A DNA stretch of 64,000 nucleotides from a virus (IMGVR_UViG_3300028805_002025:96001-160000); one strand, 5' to 3'; counted from the first letter of the stretch, positions 27,945-50,183 are shown. Numbers and translations are program-made. Notes: a model not told the origin generated them from the sequence alone.

Positions 27945-27974
27945 AAAAAATGCAGCCATTTCTGACTGCATTTT
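27945..27974 (-). terminator. intrinsic terminator ending the accessory island
   Basis: Minus strand ATGCAGTCA-GAAA-TGGCTGCAT followed by a T-run. Confidence 0.8.
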
Positions 27975-27992: not shown

Positions 27993-28286
27993 TTAACAAC
28001 GACCACTATCATTATAGCCCCCACCACCAGACCCACAGCCACCATAGCTGTAGTCATAATGGCTATCAGAACCGCATCCTCCTACAGAACGACTACTACC
28101 ACAACTGTAACCACAGTCATCATCATCGTCAAAAGGATTAACAACAGGAGGCACAAACAACATGTTTCTGTTTGCCCTTGCTGCACGAGTCGTAATCTTC
28201 TTGGTGATACCATCAACCGCATTGGTGACAGCTTCGCTTATCATTTTCTTAAGCTCACCTTCCTCAATTAGAATAAACTTTCCCAT
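27993..28286 (-). CDS. small protein with acidic linker and Gly/Ser/Cys/Tyr-rich C-terminal tail
   Basis: Start moved to ATG 28286 (MGKFILIEEGELKKMISEAV), downstream of a GATATTTATA motif; tail DDDDDCGYSCGSSRSVGGCGSDSHYDYSYGGCGSGGGGYNDSGRC. Confidence 0.65.
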   Translation of the reverse strand: MGKFILIEEGELKKMISEAVTNAVDGITKKITTRAARANRNMLFVPPVVNPFDDDDDCGYSCGSSRSVGGCGSDSHYDYSYGGCGSGGGGYNDSGRC

Positions 28287-28318: not shown

Positions 28319-29182
28319 TCAAATCCAATAAGGATGAAGACTTCCATCCTCATAGACGACACCAAAGTAGTATTCCTTCCCAAAGATGTTCCTGGTAGCA
28401 GCCTTCAGCGTATCAGCCAAAGTAGCGTGAACACACTTGTTCACAAGGAAACACGTTCTCTTTAGGGTGAACTTACCCTCATACGAAGGTATGTAGGGCG
28501 TAATATCAAACTCGGTCTTACAACCATGCGCAAACGGTGACTTTAACTTCACACCAAACGTCTTCTCGAACGAAACAAACATGTCTGGTCTGTCGAACAG
28601 CTCAACCAGCTTGATATTCTTGAAACCCATCTGGTTATAATGCTCGATACACTTGCAGATTTCATCCTTGTCACACAAGTATGGTTTCACCATGTTGATG
28701 TTCATGGTAATCTTGCTCTTGTCCTCGATGCTGCGATAGAAGCCCTGTCTGTCGAATGTTGACTTATGACCACGTATCTGGTCTGCAATCTCCTCGTTGT
28801 AGTGCTGAGGTGATATTGCCATACCATCACACTCGTTGAGGATATTGTAGAACGCATACCTGTACTGGTAACACTGCTCTGGAACTGATGTAATAACATA
28901 TACCTTCAGATTTGTACTGGACTTAACCTTACGAATTAAATCCAACACATTATCTATGAAAAGCATAGGCTCTCCACCACTGATACAGATGGAGTTAATC
29001 TTACCCCTGTTCTCGTATATCCTTGAAAATATAGCCCTTACATCTGGTTTCTTCACAGCATCATGGAGTCCCTTGTTCAAGGCATCCACACAGAAAGGAC
29101 ACTTGTTCGGACACAGCTTGGTGAAATGAATCTGCAACTCATTCTCAATCTGGTCACACGCATTTACATTGTACTTAATCAT
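28319..29182 (-). CDS. radical SAM protein
   Basis: CxxxCxxC motif (CPNKCPFC) and GGE motif (ISGGEPML); ATG 2 nt after the pnuC stop. Confidence 0.85.
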   Translation of the reverse strand: MIKYNVNACDQIENELQIHFTKLCPNKCPFCVDALNKGLHDAVKKPDVRAIFSRIYENRGKINSICISGGEPMLFIDNVLDLIRKVKSSTNLKVYVITSVPEQCYQYRYAFYNILNECDGMAISPQHYNEEIADQIRGHKSTFDRQGFYRSIEDKSKITMNINMVKPYLCDKDEICKCIEHYNQMGFKNIKLVELFDRPDMFVSFEKTFGVKLKSPFAHGCKTEFDITPYIPSYEGKFTLKRTCFLVNKCVHATLADTLKAATRNIFGKEYYFGVVYEDGSLHPYWI

Positions 29183-29184
29183 AG

Positions 29185-29850
29185 TCAATCACTCCACTTA
29201 TAATAGCCATAGATACAATTGATAGTCCAGAATACAAACTGCAATACCATACACCAGTCACCAGCAATACTCCACATTATAATACTACCAACATCAATTA
29301 TAAACCAGTAGAACCAACTCTCCTTGAATCTGAATATCATAAGGATTTGGGCTACAAACGCTGGAAGAGTAGTAATTGCATCCATTAGCGGCTGGCTGTC
29401 ATCAGTCCTCATTAATCCAGTGTACAACATGAGCGTTCCGAACACAGTGGCTATGAATACCCACACATTCTGCAAGTGAGTCATTTTTCTCGTCTCTACG
29501 GCTATTTCATTCTCATTGTAGTGCTTTATCCAATGGAACAATCCGAAGAGCATGGTGACGAAATAAAAGGCATTCTCGGCTATTTCTCCATACAGTTTCT
29601 CATTCACACATAATATGACATATGTGATAAGCTGTGCAAAGCCAAAGACATAGAATGAAATCTTTCTCTGGCTGCACAATACAACGGATATAATACCAAG
29701 ACATCCACTAATCAATGATAGTTCACTACCACCACTGAATTTGAATGCAAGTGCCTGTGTCAAGACACCAAGAAACATGAAGAATACGCTGAAATTCACG
29801 CCAGTATGAGTACCCTCAAGCTTCACTATGTCCGAAAAACTCTTACTCAT
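29185..29850 (-). CDS. pnuC: PnuC-family (nicotinamide riboside/B-vitamin) inner-membrane transporter
   Basis: 221 aa multi-TM; Pnu signatures GLFHW, QPLMDAITT, AQILM, ESWFYWFIIDV and INCIYGYYKW; coupled to the nadR-like gene. Confidence 0.85.
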   Translation of the reverse strand: MSKSFSDIVKLEGTHTGVNFSVFFMFLGVLTQALAFKFSGGSELSLISGCLGIISVVLCSQRKISFYVFGFAQLITYVILCVNEKLYGEIAENAFYFVTMLFGLFHWIKHYNENEIAVETRKMTHLQNVWVFIATVFGTLMLYTGLMRTDDSQPLMDAITTLPAFVAQILMIFRFKESWFYWFIIDVGSIIMWSIAGDWCMVLQFVFWTINCIYGYYKWSD

Positions 29851-30931
29851 TGTACAAACTGTTAATGTAATCCTTTACCTTGTTGAAATTTGACAGGAAA
29901 TTACCGTCAAGAATCTCCACCTTCTCCCAGAGGCCAAACTCCTTAAGCAGCTCAACCAGCTTGTTGAAGTTGGCAATACGCTCGTCGATAGACGACTGCT
30001 TCATGTAGCGACTGCCATCGTCCACAAACTTATTCTTTGGAGGCAGCAGGAAAATCTTATCCCACTTCACACGACCTGCAAGTGACTTAGCTGCTGGAAG
30101 CACCTTTGTATCGTACTCTTCCTTAGTGATAGGCACGTTTGGGTCTTCTGTATAAGCCAGTGCATACATCAGCGTAACCAGGTTGTCAGTATCAGAGATA
30201 AACACACCCTGGTCGTTGTTTCTTACACGCTTACATACGTCCACACTCTGACCAATAAGGAAGTCGATGAAATCATCTGCCGTAAGGTCTGTGTCGGTCT
30301 TACACTTGGCAAGCAAGTCATCCCTTCCATACTCCTCAGAGTGGTCGATACCAAAGTACGTGGAAATGTCACGCACTAGGGTTGTCTTACCCTCAGAAGC
30401 AGTGCCAGTAATAAGGATGTTATGACACAGGTTGTTTCGGTACTCCCTAACGATGTACTTCCAGTACTTCAAGGGGTTCTCACGGATGGCAGTACCACTT
30501 ACAGGCACAACCTTATCAATCAGTGTGGTTTTAGCATTAAGAAGATTATGCTTCTCCAGCATTTCCTTGTAATAAGGTTCTGCAACATACCACATGATAG
30601 AAGTGCCGTTATGCGATGGCGTAATATTGGTTTTACGCATCACCTCCTTCTGCCATAGAATCCAGTTGTTATCACACATGCTCTCGTCAATACCAAGCTC
30701 TGTGTCGTTGATGGACAATACAGTAATAAGCTCGTCCTTCTCGAATATTTTACGTACAATTGCCGTGCGCTCCTTCAACGTCATGTTGATGTTGCCAGCA
30801 CGTTCCTCATTGTCGTACCCGCAGACGATGACAAACACCTTGTCATTCTCCTTCTTAGCCCTCATGATGGCATCGAGGTGTCCACGATGCATTGGACAAT
30901 ATCCACCGAAACAAATTCCTATTCTACTCAT
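29843..30931 (-). CDS. nadR: NadR-like bifunctional NMN adenylyltransferase / ribosylnicotinamide kinase (no HTH repressor domain)
   Basis: HxGH nucleotidyltransferase motif (FGGYCPMHRGH) and VSGTAIRENP; P-loop GTASEGKTT, EYGR, DTD, FVDDGSR; ATG at 30931 overlaps the upstream TGA. Confidence 0.85.
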   Translation of the reverse strand: MSRIGICFGGYCPMHRGHLDAIMRAKKENDKVFVIVCGYDNEERAGNINMTLKERTAIVRKIFEKDELITVLSINDTELGIDESMCDNNWILWQKEVMRKTNITPSHNGTSIMWYVAEPYYKEMLEKHNLLNAKTTLIDKVVPVSGTAIRENPLKYWKYIVREYRNNLCHNILITGTASEGKTTLVRDISTYFGIDHSEEYGRDDLLAKCKTDTDLTADDFIDFLIGQSVDVCKRVRNNDQGVFISDTDNLVTLMYALAYTEDPNVPITKEEYDTKVLPAAKSLAGRVKWDKIFLLPPKNKFVDDGSRYMKQSSIDERIANFNKLVELLKEFGLWEKVEILDGNFLSNFNKVKDYINSLYNE

Positions 30932-31182
30932 TTTTCGCACTCCTTTATCTTTGCCTTCAAAATATTAATTTTACTGATTAGTTTATCCCTGTTATGTTCA
31001 AGAATCATCTTCATCATTTCTGGAGTTAACTCTGCATCAACAGTGAGAACATTTCCCAGTATAATCATTTTATTGATATGACCAACCGCAGAACCAGGTC
31101 TGTGGTTGGCTGCGTCTTCAAACCAATGGAGAGTGGTCTCAGCCGCATCAAGAGCATATTCTAATTGCCATTTCGATGTCAT
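30928..31182 (-). CDS. hypothetical protein
   Basis: 84 aa, 4-nt overlaps with both neighbours. Confidence 0.6.
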   Translation of the reverse strand: MTSKWQLEYALDAAETTLHWFEDAANHRPGSAVGHINKMIILGNVLTVDAELTPEMMKMILEHNRDKLISKINILKAKIKECEK

Positions 31183-31904
31183 ACCGTGTAGTCTTTTGTG
31201 AATCCTCCCCTACAGATAGATTCAAGTTGTTTCTTATCCATAGAGAATGCATAGTCGAATCCCCACTGTTCAATACCGCCAGAAGAGATTTTAAACAAAG
31301 CTCTCTCTGGGAAATGCGCCTTTCTCTCAGAGTTGTCAACACACTCGAAAATAGGTCTACCACTTTCATTCCATTCTCCAGAGAACCTTAGTTCGTGACA
31401 AGAGTTGTCATAGTCAGCTATGTAGCAACGTTTGAATGTTGGCTCTAGTCTGTCAAAGTCCTCACATTTATCTGTAAGTCCCTTCAGCCAGTGATGATAG
31501 TTATGAGCGTATTCGAACTCACTGAAACAGGTTCTGAAAATCTCGATTTTCATAGACATCGGCAACTTGTCGAATTCCTCAATAACCCTAACTTTACTAT
31601 TAGAATCATAGCCTTTCATAGTTACTACTGGAGAGATAAGCCTATAGCCAAGAACACACAGAACTTTCTCATTATTGTCGCCATGATGCCTAAATGCGTT
31701 GTCTGTCATGAATCCAACTCTCAAGAACACTAGTGAATCAATAACTTCTTCACACCAGCCAGAACAGCCGCCCATTGAGTAGCAAGGTATTGACTTGAGA
31801 TTATTCTCTATAAGGTGATTCTTTATAATTTCACCAAGGTTCTCATTCTCACTATAAAAATCATTAATGTGAGTTACGATTTCTTTTATTTCTGCTTTAT
31901 TCAT
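31179..31904 (-). CDS. hypothetical protein
   Basis: 241 aa, in operon context. Confidence 0.6.
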   Translation of the reverse strand: MNKAEIKEIVTHINDFYSENENLGEIIKNHLIENNLKSIPCYSMGGCSGWCEEVIDSLVFLRVGFMTDNAFRHHGDNNEKVLCVLGYRLISPVVTMKGYDSNSKVRVIEEFDKLPMSMKIEIFRTCFSEFEYAHNYHHWLKGLTDKCEDFDRLEPTFKRCYIADYDNSCHELRFSGEWNESGRPIFECVDNSERKAHFPERALFKISSGGIEQWGFDYAFSMDKKQLESICRGGFTKDYTV

Positions 31905-31915
31905 ATCAGTATATG

Positions 31916-32155
31916 TTATAACTTTATAATTCCACTTTCAACACATGATGCAAGCCACGCTTGCTTTGCAGGGTCTCCATCAAGAGCAGCCGTAATCCAC
32001 GCCTGTCTTGTCTGTCTACTTCTCTCACGTAGGTTATCCCTTTCCCATGAGAATAGGGAATCCTTCTGTTCCTCACAAAGTGCTCCGTAAGCTGCTTCTT
32101 TAGCCTCCTTACGCATCTTGCAGCGTCTTATTATTCCTTGTATAAACTTCAACAT
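31916..32155 (-). CDS. hypothetical protein
   Basis: 79 aa from ATG 32155; the longer ORF-track start runs through the promoter/terminator cassette. Confidence 0.55.
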   Translation of the reverse strand: MLKFIQGIIRRCKMRKEAKEAAYGALCEEQKDSLFSWERDNLRERSRQTRQAWITAALDGDPAKQAWLASCVESGIIKL

Positions 32156-32180
32156 ATCTGAAACATTTTTAATTTCACAT

Positions 32181-32229
32181 GCAAAGATAAACAAAAAAAG
32201 TGAGATAACCAAAATTATCCCACTTTTTT
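32181..32229 (-). promoter_or_regulatory. Bacteroidetes-type promoter (-33 TTTG, 20 nt, -7 TATCTTTG) fused to an intrinsic terminator hairpin
   Basis: Minus strand AAAAAAGTGGGATAA-TTTTGG-TTATCTCACTTTTTTT-GTTTATCTTTGC. Confidence 0.8.
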
Positions 32230-32243
32230 AAGCATTTTTAACA

Positions 32244-34286
32244 TCAGAAGAAGTACTTCACCGAAGCAAAGAAGTTGGTCGGTGCATCCTGCATGTAAAG
32301 TGGCTTTCCAGTGTTCGACAACACACCTGTCTGCATATTGTCCCTGTTGGTGATGTTGTTGATGTGGGCACTGATAAGGAACTTATCCACCTTCAAGCTG
32401 CCATACACATTCAATTGCCACCAGTCTGGAACTCTGGAGTCATTGTTCATGTCGAGGTACATATGGCTGCGATACTTGTACTCAATACCAGCAGACCACT
32501 TCTTCTCACGCCACTCAACACCCTGGTTAAAAATACATCCTGGAGTCAGCACGTGGGTCTTAGTGCCATAGGTCTCAGTCTTAACCTTGTTACTCGAATA
32601 AGAGGAATTGTTGATGAAGTGGAGCTTGTCAACTGGCTCGTAGTCAAAATACAGCTCAATACCCATACGATGACTGTCATCAGCCTTCTCATGCTCTGGG
32701 AGACCGTTCAGACCAAGTGTACCAGTAAGTGAACGCTCGTTCTCAAACAACATGGCAAACAGGTTAAGGTTGGCACTAAATCGCTTCGTTGCAATGTTCC
32801 ATCCAAGCTCAAAGTCATTGGAGGCCTCTGCATCAGTCGTTGTAAGCGCACCAGGATACCACTCATTACCACCGAACATATCAGTTCGTGTCGGTTCACG
32901 GTTGGCTCGTGCGTACTTCAAGTAAACCTCATTGTGACGACCAATCTTGTAGCTTGCATCAGCACCGAAGTTAAGGAAATTCCACTTGGTGTCCTCGTCA
33001 AACTCAACCAGCGGGTTCATAAGGTCACGATACCAGAAGTTAACACCACGATACTGCGCATTGGCTGACAATGTGAGGTTTCCAAACGACTTCTTGGCGT
33101 TCAAGAACACCTCATAGTCCATCTTGTGACCACGATTATCGTAGTACTCAGCAGGGTCGATGTTACGTGCCTTGTCGATATTACGGTCATCAAGATAGTG
33201 CTCACGCTCGAACTTGTAGATATTAGTACCAAGGGTGATAGAACCATCGTTGATGTAGTAACGTGCTGCTGCATTGCCACCGTACATGTGCTGCTTGAGA
33301 CCGTAATTGTAGAGCATACCTGTCTCCATAGGCTCTTCACAGAGGCGAAGCATGTAGTTATCAAGGTCAAAACGATACTCACCCATCAGCATGTTCCAGT
33401 AGAGTGAAGAGGTAAACAGAATCTTCTCACCAAGCCAACTGTTATACGTCAGCTTATTAACGGTCTGGAAGAAATTGTCATCCTCGTCCTTGCTACAGCC
33501 ATTGAGGTGTCGGTTCTTCTCAAGGTCTTCCATAGAGACACCGATATAACCCTGTCCATTGGTATGGTAACCAGTAATCGATAACAGGTCAACCCAACTC
33601 TTCTCATTGATGAAGTAACCCAGCTTGAAGCCAAGTGATTGTGAGTTGTTCTGACTGTGCTCACGATAGCCATCAGTATGTGACAATGTACCACGCACAT
33701 GTAATGCCCACTTACCCATGAGTCCTGTGTTGATGTTTACAGATGTCTTGGCTGATGCGAAGCTACCTGCACCGAACTCAGCATAGGATGTGGTGTTCTT
33801 CAACAGGTCTACAGAGCTGATGTTGATACTTCCACCGTATGATGCAGTTCCTGGATTATAGGTGCTTGTACCACGCCCAACGTCAATTGTACCTGCGTCT
33901 GCCATGATGTCGGGGCTATTAGCGAAGTAGCAGCCAAAATCCTCAGCCTCATTCCAAGGCATACCGTCCAGCGTTACATTAATGCGGGTCTGGTCAAGAC
34001 CACGAATGCGGAAATAGCCGTAACCAAAGTCAGTACCGTTGTCGCTGAATGCGAAGATGGAAGGCATCTTGGCAAACAACCAAGAAGGCTCTTGACCGTA
34101 GTTGTTGGCAACAAGGTTCTTAGAGTCCACAGAACTGCCCAACATGGGGGTAGCACTCCGATAGAAGGAGGTGACGGTGAACTCGTCCAACGTCTGGTTA
34201 ATTACAGAATCTGTACTCTCGATTGTGTCAGCATAGGTCATTGTTGCCATTGCCAGACACATGAATAAACTGATAAACTTTTTCAT
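32244..34286 (-). CDS. TonB-dependent outer-membrane receptor (resembles the Bacteroidetes vitamin/thiamine-type receptors)
   Basis: Signal peptide; TonB-box-like TLDEFTVTS; plug motifs FRIRGLDQTRINVTLDGMPWN and YGGSINI; barrel motifs REPTRTDMF, LNVYGS and INNITNR; C-terminal Phe (KYFF). Confidence 0.9.
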   Translation of the reverse strand: MKKFISLFMCLAMATMTYADTIESTDSVINQTLDEFTVTSFYRSATPMLGSSVDSKNLVANNYGQEPSWLFAKMPSIFAFSDNGTDFGYGYFRIRGLDQTRINVTLDGMPWNEAEDFGCYFANSPDIMADAGTIDVGRGTSTYNPGTASYGGSINISSVDLLKNTTSYAEFGAGSFASAKTSVNINTGLMGKWALHVRGTLSHTDGYREHSQNNSQSLGFKLGYFINEKSWVDLLSITGYHTNGQGYIGVSMEDLEKNRHLNGCSKDEDDNFFQTVNKLTYNSWLGEKILFTSSLYWNMLMGEYRFDLDNYMLRLCEEPMETGMLYNYGLKQHMYGGNAAARYYINDGSITLGTNIYKFEREHYLDDRNIDKARNIDPAEYYDNRGHKMDYEVFLNAKKSFGNLTLSANAQYRGVNFWYRDLMNPLVEFDEDTKWNFLNFGADASYKIGRHNEVYLKYARANREPTRTDMFGGNEWYPGALTTTDAEASNDFELGWNIATKRFSANLNLFAMLFENERSLTGTLGLNGLPEHEKADDSHRMGIELYFDYEPVDKLHFINNSSYSSNKVKTETYGTKTHVLTPGCIFNQGVEWREKKWSAGIEYKYRSHMYLDMNNDSRVPDWWQLNVYGSLKVDKFLISAHINNITNRDNMQTGVLSNTGKPLYMQDAPTNFFASVKYFF

Positions 34287-34609
34287 TTTCTTAAAATGTT
34301 ATTTAATGTTAAACCTTTTTCTTTCTTCTCCTTATTCTTTTCCTCCTTTAACTTCTTCCTCTCTCCCTTGGAAAGCCACCAATGGTCTCTCTCCAGTAGG
34401 ACTATATCGTCTGCATTGCTGCAAAGCCATACAAACCCCATTGCTAAGAAGACACATATCATTCCTGGTATGATAATCCACCAGAATAATATTGATGCTA
34501 TCAGATTAGCAAGAGTTATCTTGTTGTTGGCATAATACAGGAATACCAATGATACGAACGTACCAATAATCCATGATATAATCCACAATACAATTTCAAT
34601 ACCAGTCAT
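34283..34609 (-). CDS. small membrane protein
   Basis: 108 aa, two hydrophobic segments and a Lys-rich tail; 4-nt overlap with the receptor start. Confidence 0.65.
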   Translation of the reverse strand: MTGIEIVLWIISWIIGTFVSLVFLYYANNKITLANLIASILFWWIIIPGMICVFLAMGFVWLCSNADDIVLLERDHWWLSKGERKKLKEEKNKEKKEKGLTLNNILRK

Positions 34610-34613
34610 ATTA

Positions 34614-34790
34614 TTATCCTTTCTTACTTTCTTTTATTGTTTTACCACACTCTGGACAGAACTTGACCTTACCAATGACATCACCAAACATGGTGTTCTC
34701 CCCAAGATATACAAGTTGTCCAGATTCATTCATAAAAATCTTATGACCTTCTCTACCAATGGTTTTCTTTCCTTCACAAAACCTACACAT
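34614..34790 (-). CDS. small zinc-ribbon protein (not in the ORF track)
   Basis: 58 aa, MCRFCEG...KFCPECGK; fills the gap between neighbouring genes. Confidence 0.65.
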   Translation of the reverse strand: MCRFCEGKKTIGREGHKIFMNESGQLVYLGENTMFGDVIGKVKFCPECGKTIKESKKG

Positions 34791-34791
34791 A

Positions 34792-35058
34792 TTATTCTTC
34801 CTTTAAAAATATGTCAACCATACTTCTCAGACCACGCTCAAGACGATAATCCTCATATCTCAACAGGGAGTCGATGGGATTCATATCCTCAGTACCCTCA
34901 AGGATGGTGTCATTAAGGATAGCCTCCTTGTACTCCTTCCAAGTCCAAGAGTTCTTGCCTGGCATCGGTGACATCACTGCGATGGTATCCTCACCATGCT
35001 TCTTTATTTCCTTTTCTACGCTCTTGAGTAGAATCTTTTTTGCTTGCTCTCTGGTCAT
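34792..35058 (-). CDS. hypothetical protein
   Basis: 88 aa, in operon context. Confidence 0.6.
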   Translation of the reverse strand: MTREQAKKILLKSVEKEIKKHGEDTIAVMSPMPGKNSWTWKEYKEAILNDTILEGTEDMNPIDSLLRYEDYRLERGLRSMVDIFLKEE

Positions 35059-35077
35059 ATTATTTTAATTTAATTTG

Positions 35078-35578
35078 TTAATCTTCATTCTTTTTTACAA
35101 ACATTGCATTGTTTTTAGCTGCCCCATACCATAAAACTAATTTATAACCATTTTTTTCATATTCTTTAGCCTCTAGCCAATCAGTTCTACCAATAATGCT
35201 ATCGTAACCAATACAATTGAAAAGTTCTTCTAGAATTCTTATTTCAGCACTGCTTGATTGCGGATAGAATCTATTCTTTAATACATTACCATCATTGTCA
35301 ACGATGCAAGAGCTACAGAAATATCCAGTTGGAAAGCTTCTAAGTACACTATACTCATCAAACTTATCCTTGTTTACAATGAACTTATATTCTGTAAATG
35401 GGTTAAACTGCAAGTCAGAAAAATGGTTCTCAACCATATCTTTAGGCAGTTCATAGTCGCATTCATCTAAATAAACACGACTCTCTTCACACCCTACCCT
35501 GTTTGACCAAAACAGAGTCTCATATGTACCGCACAATTTAAATGATTTTTCATCTTTATTAAAAGCCCAAACTAACAT
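35078..35578 (-). CDS. hypothetical protein
   Basis: 166 aa, first gene after the promoter at 35607-35639. Confidence 0.6.
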   Translation of the reverse strand: MLVWAFNKDEKSFKLCGTYETLFWSNRVGCEESRVYLDECDYELPKDMVENHFSDLQFNPFTEYKFIVNKDKFDEYSVLRSFPTGYFCSSCIVDNDGNVLKNRFYPQSSSAEIRILEELFNCIGYDSIIGRTDWLEAKEYEKNGYKLVLWYGAAKNNAMFVKKNED

Positions 35579-35606: not shown

Positions 35607-35655
35607 GCAAAGATAAATAAAAAAATCGAGACTACCAAATATAGTCCCGATTTTT
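35607..35655 (-). promoter_or_regulatory. Bacteroidetes-type promoter fused to a terminator hairpin
   Basis: Minus strand AAAAATCGGGACTA-TATTTGG-TAGTCTCGATTTTTTT-ATTTATCTTTGC; 20-nt -33/-7 spacing. Confidence 0.8.
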
Positions 35656-37401: not shown

Positions 37402-37447
37402 GCAAAGATATATAAAAAAATCGAGATAAACAAATTTTATCCCGATT
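37402..37447 (-). promoter_or_regulatory. Bacteroidetes-type promoter fused to a terminator hairpin
   Basis: Minus strand ATCGGGATAAA-ATTTG-TTTATCTCGATTTTTTT-ATATATCTTTGC; 20-nt spacing. Confidence 0.8.
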
Positions 37448-50134: not shown

Positions 50135-50183
50135 GCAAAAGTATACAAAAAAAGTGAGATAACCAAAACTATCTCACTTTTTT
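50135..50183 (-). promoter_or_regulatory. Bacteroidetes-type promoter fused to a terminator hairpin
   Basis: Minus strand AAAAAAGTGAGATAG-TTTTGG-TTATCTCACTTTTTTT-GTATACTTTTGC; -7 box TACTTTTG; 20-nt spacing. Confidence 0.75.

Follow-up and report, generated by a model that had tools for sequence, protein, structure and literature searches.

We analyzed a 64,000-nucleotide (nt) stretch of viral DNA (IMGVR_UViG_3300028805_002025:96001-160000; hereafter the window, with positions counted from its first letter) that carries, side by side, genes for a TonB-dependent receptor (TBDR), a NadR-like enzyme, a PnuC-family channel, and a radical S-adenosylmethionine (radical SAM, rSAM) protein. The source record is a 241,681-bp IMG/VR virus contig with an estimated completeness of 75%, for which a sheep-gut metagenome is marked as the possible source; the phage infects Bacteroidota and, with a record of 242 kb, is a jumbo phage. 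The module genes lie in a phage context on this virus contig, with baseplate genes adjoining, including a gp25 baseplate gene directly downstream of the module (Pfam). An initial annotation of the window had grouped the four genes into a two-membrane import and NAD+ (nicotinamide adenine dinucleotide) salvage module. All four are present, intact, and encoded on the minus strand, and their reported tight coupling holds: nadR and pnuC overlap by 8 nt, and a gap of 2 nt separates pnuC from the rSAM gene. The locus comprises the following features, given with the evidence for each:

32244-34286, minus strand: TonB-dependent receptor, 680 aa (Pfam Plug, AlphaFold2 [AF2], Foldseek, terminal motifs, and the ratio of nonsynonymous to synonymous substitution rates [dN/dS])
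29843-30940, minus strand: bifunctional NadR without a helix-turn-helix (HTH) domain, 365 aa, nicotinamide mononucleotide (NMN) adenylyltransferase plus ribosylnicotinamide kinase (TIGR01526, phrog_3462, 6gye)
29185-29850, minus strand: PnuC-family inner-membrane channel, 221 aa (PF04973, TIGR01528, phrog_1880, 4qtn)
28319-29182, minus strand: rSAM gene, reaching to 29188 if a TTG start is used (PF04055, CxxxCxxC, SGGEP)
27993-28286, minus strand: 97-aa Cys/Gly/Ser/Tyr-rich protein, likely the rSAM substrate (sequence reading)
30928-32155, minus strand: three open reading frames (ORFs) of 79, 241, and 84 aa that match no family and open the nadR unit (relatives gave no tblastn match)
34283-35578, minus strand: four small ORFs 5' of the receptor, namely orf166, orf88, a 58-aa ORF with a CxxC...CxxC pattern, and orf108 (no family assigned)
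35608-35639, minus strand: Bacteroidota-type promoter of the first transcription unit, composed of TTTG, a spacer, and TATCTTTG (pattern search)
35621-35655, minus strand: terminator hairpin whose 3' arm overlaps the first-unit promoter (terminator scan)
32182-32229, minus strand: fused element made up of the hairpin that terminates the receptor unit (32194-32229) and the second-unit promoter (32182-32213; pattern search and terminator scan)
27947-27974, minus strand: intrinsic terminator at the end of the second unit (terminator scan)

Identity of the receptor, the enzyme, and the channel

Hidden Markov model and structure searches (Pfam, NCBIfam, PHROGs, and PDB profiles) back the identities of the genes. 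The receptor contains a Plug domain (PF07715; E 8.6e-8, 33.1 bits against a cutoff of 23.9) with motifs that are invariant across 20 homologues; PF00593 was not matched by the window receptor itself, whereas its homologues do match this family. In an AF2 model computed from an alignment of 20 homologues, the barrel reached a predicted local distance difference test (pLDDT) score of approximately 80, and Foldseek related the model to PqqU, YncD, Fiu, FecA, and FhuA with E values from 1e-27 to 1e-22 (PqqU, E 4e-27; FhuA, E 1e-23; template modeling score approximately 0.6). The predicted structure agrees with the 22-stranded beta-barrel characteristic of TonB-dependent transporters. A PDB search with the single receptor sequence returned no match, and solved receptors were reached by the profile search alone. 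Reading of the termini by eye recognized a hydrophobic N-terminus up to TYA/DT, corresponding to a signal peptide, a TonB-box-like segment (LDEFTVTS) that is kept as L-[DEK]-E-[VFL]-x-[VI] in both phage and cellular members, and a C-terminus (...KYFF) with an aromatic end residue. The dN/dS values between close phage relatives range from 0.07 to 0.14, indicating purifying selection on the receptor. An assignment to the SusC-like receptors, which are typified by a length of approximately 1000 aa, an N-terminal extension, and an adjacent SusD-like lipoprotein, was rejected: the protein has 680 aa and neither a CarboxypepD_reg domain nor an N-terminal extension, its neighbors are without a Pfam family, none of them being SusD-like, and the receptors that match its fold best are those for small molecules.

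NadR matched the CTP_transf_like and AAA_28 families, TIGR01526 (E 6.5e-56), and phrog_3462 (E 7.6e-62). It aligns to positions 61 to 406 of the 411-position full-length NadR model and, because the match begins at position 61, the HTH domain is missing. The HxGH (PMHRGH) and Walker A (GTASEGKT) motifs are present and aligned with those of the Lactococcus NadR structure (6gye; E 1.5e-44). Coverage of TIGR01526 and these motifs bear out the initial description of the protein as an HTH-less, NadR-like HxGH nucleotidyltransferase/P-loop kinase. PnuC is recognized by PF04973 (E 1e-41), TIGR01528 (119 bits against a cutoff of 42), and phrog_1880, with the WxxW and YGY motifs aligned to the Neisseria PnuC structure (4qtn; E 1.3e-24). 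Among close relatives (window versus L045, L046, L048, L049, and L058), identity is 51% to 64% for PnuC, compared with 80% to 84% for NadR, 68% to 85% for the receptor, and 63% to 92% for the rSAM protein, which suggests that pnuC alone has been replaced repeatedly within the module.

Linkage of the receptor to pnuC and nadR in phages and bacteria

The initial annotation had staked its reading in advance on the receptor co-occurring with pnuC and nadR in relatives, and the linkage holds for all well-sampled relatives; it was found in Lak megaphages, other huge phages, IMG/VR loci, and metagenome contigs. With tblastn, the receptor was recovered at full length from 15/15 Lak megaphage records (39% identity), and the same 15 records contain nadR-pnuC matches; in Lak-A1, taken as the representative, this pair shares the strand of the receptor and follows downstream at a distance of approximately 5 kb, and the spacer holds a DUF4407 gene and genes without a recognized function, none of them NAD-linked. 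Full-length receptors were also found in LR756501, LR756502, LR756503, and LR745206 (28% to 32% identity; 31% for LR745206), and in LR756501, LR756502, and LR745206 the order is receptor, PnuC, and NadR, directly adjacent. Besides Lak, representative loci of phages of 630 to 735 kb carry the trio. Among the IMG/VR loci that include downstream DNA, both genes are found within 7 kb downstream of the receptor in 16 of the 17 that are informative, and the linkage recurs on metagenome contigs L005 to L008 and L066. The contigs that encode more distant homologues are phage-like, with genes for DNA ligase, gyrase, IF3, and Thg1 and many small ORFs. At one IMG/VR locus (L061, IMGVR_UViG_3300022654_000841), the receptor match stops after 273 residues, pnuC follows approximately 500 bp later, and a NadR match is lacking; the locus may hold a copy of the module that has decayed or been rearranged. 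A pattern scan of species genomes with the receptor sequence alone gave no match, and the same scan with the alignment retrieved only a 41.6-kb contig (JAFRDD010000051.1, loci L009/L012) from a metagenome-assembled genome (MAG) labeled "Clostridia bacterium." This contig carries the phage-type module of receptor, NadR, PnuC, rSAM, and peptide genes and is probably a phage contig mis-binned into a bacterial MAG.

The receptor has cellular counterparts as well. A profile search of 1.84 billion representative proteins returned 879 clusters at E ≤ 1e-30, the representative of one of which is encoded on a 576-kb bacterial contig between genes for PnuC, an ADP-ribosylglycohydrolase, and an AAA_28 kinase, and 92 of 401 Bacteroidota genomes contain a receptor match at E ≤ 1e-40. 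In the 18-kb stretches surrounding the 40 best cellular matches, PnuC is encoded within 8 kb of the receptor in 16/40, against a chance expectation that we roughly estimate at below 1% for a single-copy gene, and a NadR/AAA_28 gene is present in 16/40. The three best cellular receptors (466 to 470 bits) belong to tight TBDR-PnuC-NadR operons. One of these operons resides on a 4.87-Mb chromosome, with cellular flanks (amino-acid permease, aldo-keto reductase, and chemotaxis receptor) and a regulator composed of NUDIX and NrtR_WHD domains immediately upstream; NrtR is an ADP-ribose-responsive regulator of NAD metabolism (PMC2330246). Another cellular operon is preceded by genes for Macro, NADAR, and ADP-ribosylglycohydrolase proteins. 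In the literature searched, we found no description of a cellular TBDR-PnuC-NadR operon, only a passing remark, based on STRING, that a Shewanella TonB receptor co-occurs with PnuC.

In phylogenetic analysis, all phage receptors (21/21) and the PnuC/NadR-linked cellular receptors form one clade (Shimodaira-Hasegawa-like approximate likelihood ratio test [SH-aLRT] support of 86), in which 25 of 26 members are linked to both PnuC and NadR, versus 1 of 12 in the cellular sister clade. The gut-phage receptors (the groups of the window and of L005, Lak, and L059) are monophyletic (SH-aLRT 100). Their partners have other affinities: the gut-phage NadR is sister to the Macrococcus-type NadR (SH-aLRT 100), and the gut-phage PnuC groups with stand-alone chromosomal PnuC proteins of Bacteroidales (SH-aLRT 100), to which it is 50% identical, compared with 23% for the operon type. 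The gene order of the gut-phage clade (receptor, NadR, and PnuC) is also swapped relative to the cellular operon, whereas LR756501, LR756502, LR745206, and L066 have all three genes of cellular-operon lineages and in the cellular order. The trio of the gut-phage clade thus appears to be a mosaic, with PnuC and NadR derived from lineages other than that of the cellular operon, and has been kept or reassembled with nonorthologous parts, a pattern that simple inheritance explains poorly and that favors selection acting on the combination. At the Bacteroidales loci with the closest PnuC (L011 and L013 to L017), pnuC is a stand-alone gene surrounded by ordinary metabolic genes and has neither a receptor nor a NadR gene in its vicinity, which means that the phage did not copy its trio from a host operon with this kind of PnuC. 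A second, looser association of receptor, PnuC, and kinase is found in Bacteroidota loci L114, L115, L118, L121, L123, L125, L127, L130, and L132, where PnuC is followed by an AAA_28 kinase-DUF4301 fusion (approximately 704 aa) 3 to 5 kb from a receptor of the neighboring clade; L123 carries a Flavo-1 RNA.

Transcription units and accompanying genes

The module is divided between two transcription units. The first (promoter 35608-35639) runs through the four small ORFs to the receptor and ends at the hairpin 32194-32229, the stop codon of orf108 overlapping the receptor start (ATGA). The second (promoter 32182-32213) comprises the ORFs of 79, 241, and 84 aa, nadR, pnuC, the rSAM gene, and the gene for the 97-aa peptide and ends at the terminator 27947-27974; its promoter overlaps the 3' arm of the receptor terminator hairpin. 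The promoter pattern (TTTG...TAnnTTTG) occurs at 9 sites in the window, compared with 2.5 expected, and none of 100 shuffled sequences reached 9. Fusions of a terminator hairpin and a Bacteroidota-type promoter, in which the loop of the hairpin contains the -33 TTTG, occur at 32182-32229, 35608-35655, 37403-37434, and 50136-50167 (minus strand). The earlier proposal of two units with host-type promoters is thus correct in substance, except that the receptor is the last gene of its unit rather than the first. With host-type promoters at the head of both units, their transcription by host RNA polymerase is probably possible from the onset of infection. Sheep-gut metatranscriptome contigs (two runs of one sample) that are 100% identical to the window cover parts of the receptor, nadR, pnuC, and the 241-aa ORF, with structural genes at equally low depth; they are not proof of transcription because the data are unstranded and DNA carry-over is possible. 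TAG has been recoded as a sense codon in Lak-A1 (L001, MK250016.1 18000-38000); the frames for the receptor, NadR, and PnuC are free of it, whereas neighboring ORFs have 2 to 7 such codons. The TAG-free frames of the trio fit expression before the genetic-code switch, and such early translation would leave the barrel protein time to reach the outer membrane.

The small genes around the receptor differ in their conservation. The membrane protein encoded by orf108 (34283-34609, minus strand) is 108 aa long and has a basic tail in addition to three hydrophobic helices; its gene is directly upstream of the receptor in close relatives L044, L045, L057, and L058 as well, and the protein may be an accessory of the receptor. 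The gene orf166 (35078-35578) is located 5' of the receptor in the window, but between the receptor and nadR in close relatives (L044, L045, and L058 compared). The ORFs of 79, 241, and 84 aa that occupy the space between receptor and nadR here have no family and no tblastn homologue in any relative fetched, and the small ORFs found at that position in relatives are unrelated to one another. These three ORFs are probably a local insertion and, taken together with the position of orf166, reflect a local rearrangement or insertion; roles for them as a periplasmic nucleotidase or a conserved fourth component were rejected on the same grounds.

The rSAM protein matched PF04055 (E 2.6e-10, 41.2 bits against a cutoff of 29.5) and has the CPNKCPFC and SGGEP motifs; no NCBIfam subfamily reached its cutoff, and the nearest Atlas clusters are 100% viral. 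The 97-aa protein encoded downstream, which lacks a signal peptide, begins with a helical part that a DDDD spacer separates from a tail rich in Cys, Gly, Ser, and Tyr, whose last residue is Cys. Of 10 gut-clade loci examined beyond the window, 9 (L006, L007, L009, L045, L046, L048, L049, L058, and L059) have an rSAM gene and, immediately downstream or separated from it by one or two small ORFs, a gene for a 90- to 155-aa protein. The N-terminal part of this protein is helical, and its tail consists of GGCGS-like Cys/Gly/Ser/Tyr repeats and has Cys as the last residue. The two genes accompany the trio in 9/17 IMG/VR loci and in L006, L007, and L009. In LR756502 and LR745206, a weaker match to the rSAM protein was found close to the trio. 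The pair is missing from the trio-bearing loci of Lak, L005, and L050 and from every cellular operon examined. These patterns suggest that the rSAM protein more likely acts on the downstream Cys-rich peptide than on NAD, and that the two genes constitute a separate unit, co-transcribed and traveling with the NAD operon, which looks like a conserved, phage-specific maturase-peptide pair. The place in the NAD chain that the initial annotation gave to the rSAM protein is, accordingly with both distributions, probably not justified.

The rest of the phage record was also searched for NAD-related genes. It contains no NAPRTase/NAMPT family match and, by tblastn, no LigA, Macro, NADAR, ARH, or NrtR homologue; only a Tpt1/KptA-like gene was found. 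This homologue (PTS_2-RNA family; G000:C1:176168-176704, outside the window) is 57% identical to the copy in L005. Members of the Tpt1/KptA family are NAD+-consuming RNA 2'-phosphotransferases.

A candidate outer-membrane step in phage NAD+ salvage

The closest known system is NARP3, in which a phage-encoded PnuC and an HTH-less NadR import nicotinamide riboside (NR), make NAD+, and defeat the Sir2-HerA and DSR1 defenses (Sci Adv 2026, PMC13464706). In phage TrudiRoth, its components are the PnuC-like transporter Bas30_87 and the HTH-less NadR-like enzyme Bas30_86, and the paper describes the system as confined for the most part to Enterobacteriaceae phages; its text is free of the words TonB, outer membrane, jumbo, and Bacteroid (PMC13464706). 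The window shares with NARP3 the adjacent, translationally coupled nadR-pnuC pair, the NadR with NMN adenylyltransferase and kinase domains but no HTH, and the predicted conversion of NR to NMN and NAD+. It differs in the TBDR that is linked to and conserved with the pair, in the Bacteroidota hosts and the jumbo or mega size of the phages, and in that function is predicted here. The initial claim that a complete module of this kind was new must be narrowed, since PnuC with an HTH-less NadR has been published as NARP3; the link of the receptor to phage PnuC-NadR was not found in the literature searched. Earlier work had met the receptor in other guises. The Lak preprint lists the receptor, as "iron complex outer membrane receptor," and pnuC separately (10.1101/356790), and the megaphage receptor of Mar_Mega_1 and LR745206 was called "SusC" and linked to carbohydrate uptake (PMC9723777). 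The Lak and LR745206 genes are full-length homologues of the window receptor, but the receptor was seen as enigmatic or as a carbohydrate importer, with no connection to pnuC or nadR. A study of NAD in jumbo phages reported pnuC in 68/174 phages and no receptor, and neither the huge-phage paper nor the Jug-phage paper mentions receptor, pnuC, or nadR.

Three cellular systems resemble the module in part. The bacterial operons (L103, L104, L105, and L064) encode the same three protein types, with receptors of the phage receptor clade; the window differs from them in gene order, in a PnuC that is 23% identical to the operon type, in a NadR closest to the Macrococcus/Lactococcus type, and in having no NrtR, Macro, or NADAR neighbor. 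In the thiamine chain of Bacteroides, the TonB-dependent receptor OMthi, PnuT, and a thiamine kinase are controlled by a thiamine pyrophosphate (TPP) riboswitch. This chain has the same succession of a receptor in the outer membrane, a channel of the Pnu family, and a kinase that traps the substrate, but the phage locus has no TPP riboswitch, its NadR is complete with an NMN adenylyltransferase, and its PnuC passes the NCBIfam PnuC model. Haemophilus influenzae takes up NAD and NR through the OmpP2 porin, NadN and e(P4), PnuC, and NadR, likewise a two-membrane route ending in PnuC and NadR. Its outer step consists of a porin and periplasmic nucleotidases, whereas the phage has a receptor predicted to be energized and no recognized nucleotidase. 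Part of PMC4081464 touches on this uptake in H. influenzae.

We consider it probable that the module salvages NR in the manner of NARP3 and adds to this route a dedicated receptor in the outer membrane. The outer-membrane step that the initial annotation added to PnuC/NadR salvage is strongly supported by comparative genomics (co-occurrence, NAD-linked cellular operons, and dN/dS), whereas the reading as a whole is supported in part. The receptor would be exported, inserted into the host outer membrane, and pull a precursor, most likely NR, into the periplasm by means of the host TonB-ExbBD system. The riboside would then cross the inner membrane through PnuC by facilitated diffusion, a family function shown for other PnuC proteins, and NadR, judging from its family and its catalytic motifs, would convert it to NMN and on to NAD+, trapping it in the cell. 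By analogy with NARP3, the benefit may be that the NAD+ pool is upheld during a long jumbo-phage infection, including when NAD+-depleting defenses fire.

The receptor might instead import another nutrient (thiamine, another B vitamin, an iron chelate, or a sugar) and merely be located in a nutrient-uptake island beside pnuC and nadR. Its best sequence and fold matches are siderophore, pyrroloquinoline quinone (PQQ), and copper receptors, and automatic names such as "iron complex outermembrane receptor protein" and "SusC" (PMC9723777) point the same way. We nevertheless regard this alternative as unlikely. Linkage to PnuC and NadR is specific to the receptor clade and nearly absent from its sister, the cellular members have NrtR, Macro, and NADAR neighbors, and the protein is not SusC-like in length, N-terminus, or neighbors. 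For thiamine in particular, the tests made gave no support: a search for TPP riboswitches had no match in positions 20000-45000 of the window (Rfam, E up to 0.1) or in eight cellular loci (at the gathering score), and NadR has a full NMN adenylyltransferase domain that thiamine salvage does not need.

Two further alternatives are both very improbable. In the sub-clade with the rSAM gene, the receptor could take up the rSAM-modified Cys-rich peptide as a metallophore-like ribosomally synthesized and post-translationally modified peptide, in analogy to methanobactin uptake by the TonB-dependent receptor MbnT, or, more loosely, the rSAM protein could provide a fourth NAD step. Co-transcription of the pair with nadR-pnuC and its recurrence beside the trio in phages would agree with either version; yet the trio persists without the pair in phages and cells alike, the peptide has no signal peptide for export, we know of no NAD step that needs a radical SAM enzyme, and its pairing with the peptide gene is enough to account for the conservation of the rSAM gene. 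The receptor could also serve not for import but at the surface, in phage-phage or phage-host conflict, as a decoy, a block to superinfection, or a replacement of the host receptor. Phages do alter outer-membrane proteins to block superinfection, and FhuA structures with phage T5 Llp and pb5 are among the fold matches, although nothing in the locus points specifically in this direction. The strong conservation of the TonB-box-like motif and the plug residues suggests, in contrast, that energized transport has been kept, and a surface role would leave both the tight, ancient linkage with PnuC/NadR and the cellular trio operons unexplained.

Several observations weigh against a salvage route with a dedicated NR receptor. 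The substrate, be it NR, NMN, NAD+, or another compound, is read only from the neighboring genes, and the structural matches give the fold of the receptor, not its specificity; the plug part of the AF2 model, moreover, has a pLDDT below 50. In other bacteria, NR is small enough for porins, and the need for a receptor is not obvious. No TonB_C or ExbB family match was found in the phage record, which is 75% complete, and the energy supply by TonB-ExbB-ExbD would have to come from the host. The NrtR-like neighbor of the cellular operon is strong context and suggestive, not proof, and NrtR paralogues of Bacteroidetes control pentose genes (PMC2330246). Finally, the trees are unrooted and come from quick searches under LG+G4 with SH-aLRT support only and biased cellular sampling.

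On balance, and with less assurance than for the salvage route itself, we lean toward a broader proposal: the receptor clade may be the first outer-membrane transporter dedicated to pyridine nucleosides or nucleotides (NR, NMN, or NAD), under NrtR-type control in some Bacteroidota and either captured, or rebuilt as a trio with nonorthologous PnuC and NadR, by several lineages of giant gut and environmental phages, with the outer membrane of the infected cell re-equipped to draw vitamin-B3 derivatives from the gut lumen. That the three parts form a mosaic of different origins would be a rare natural argument for selection on the combination itself. The comparisons also indicate an uncharacterized family of bacterial TonB-dependent receptors for NAD precursors, for which the cellular operon offers a tractable test system and which bears on competition for B vitamins in the gut. 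If the salvage reading is true, a concrete function could be given to the "enigmatic" receptor that all Lak megaphages and many other giant phages encode, rebuilding of NAD+ would be a strategy not only of Enterobacteriaceae phages but also of those of Bacteroidota, a dominant phylum of gut and rumen, and the metabolic takeover by phages would reach the outer membrane of the host.

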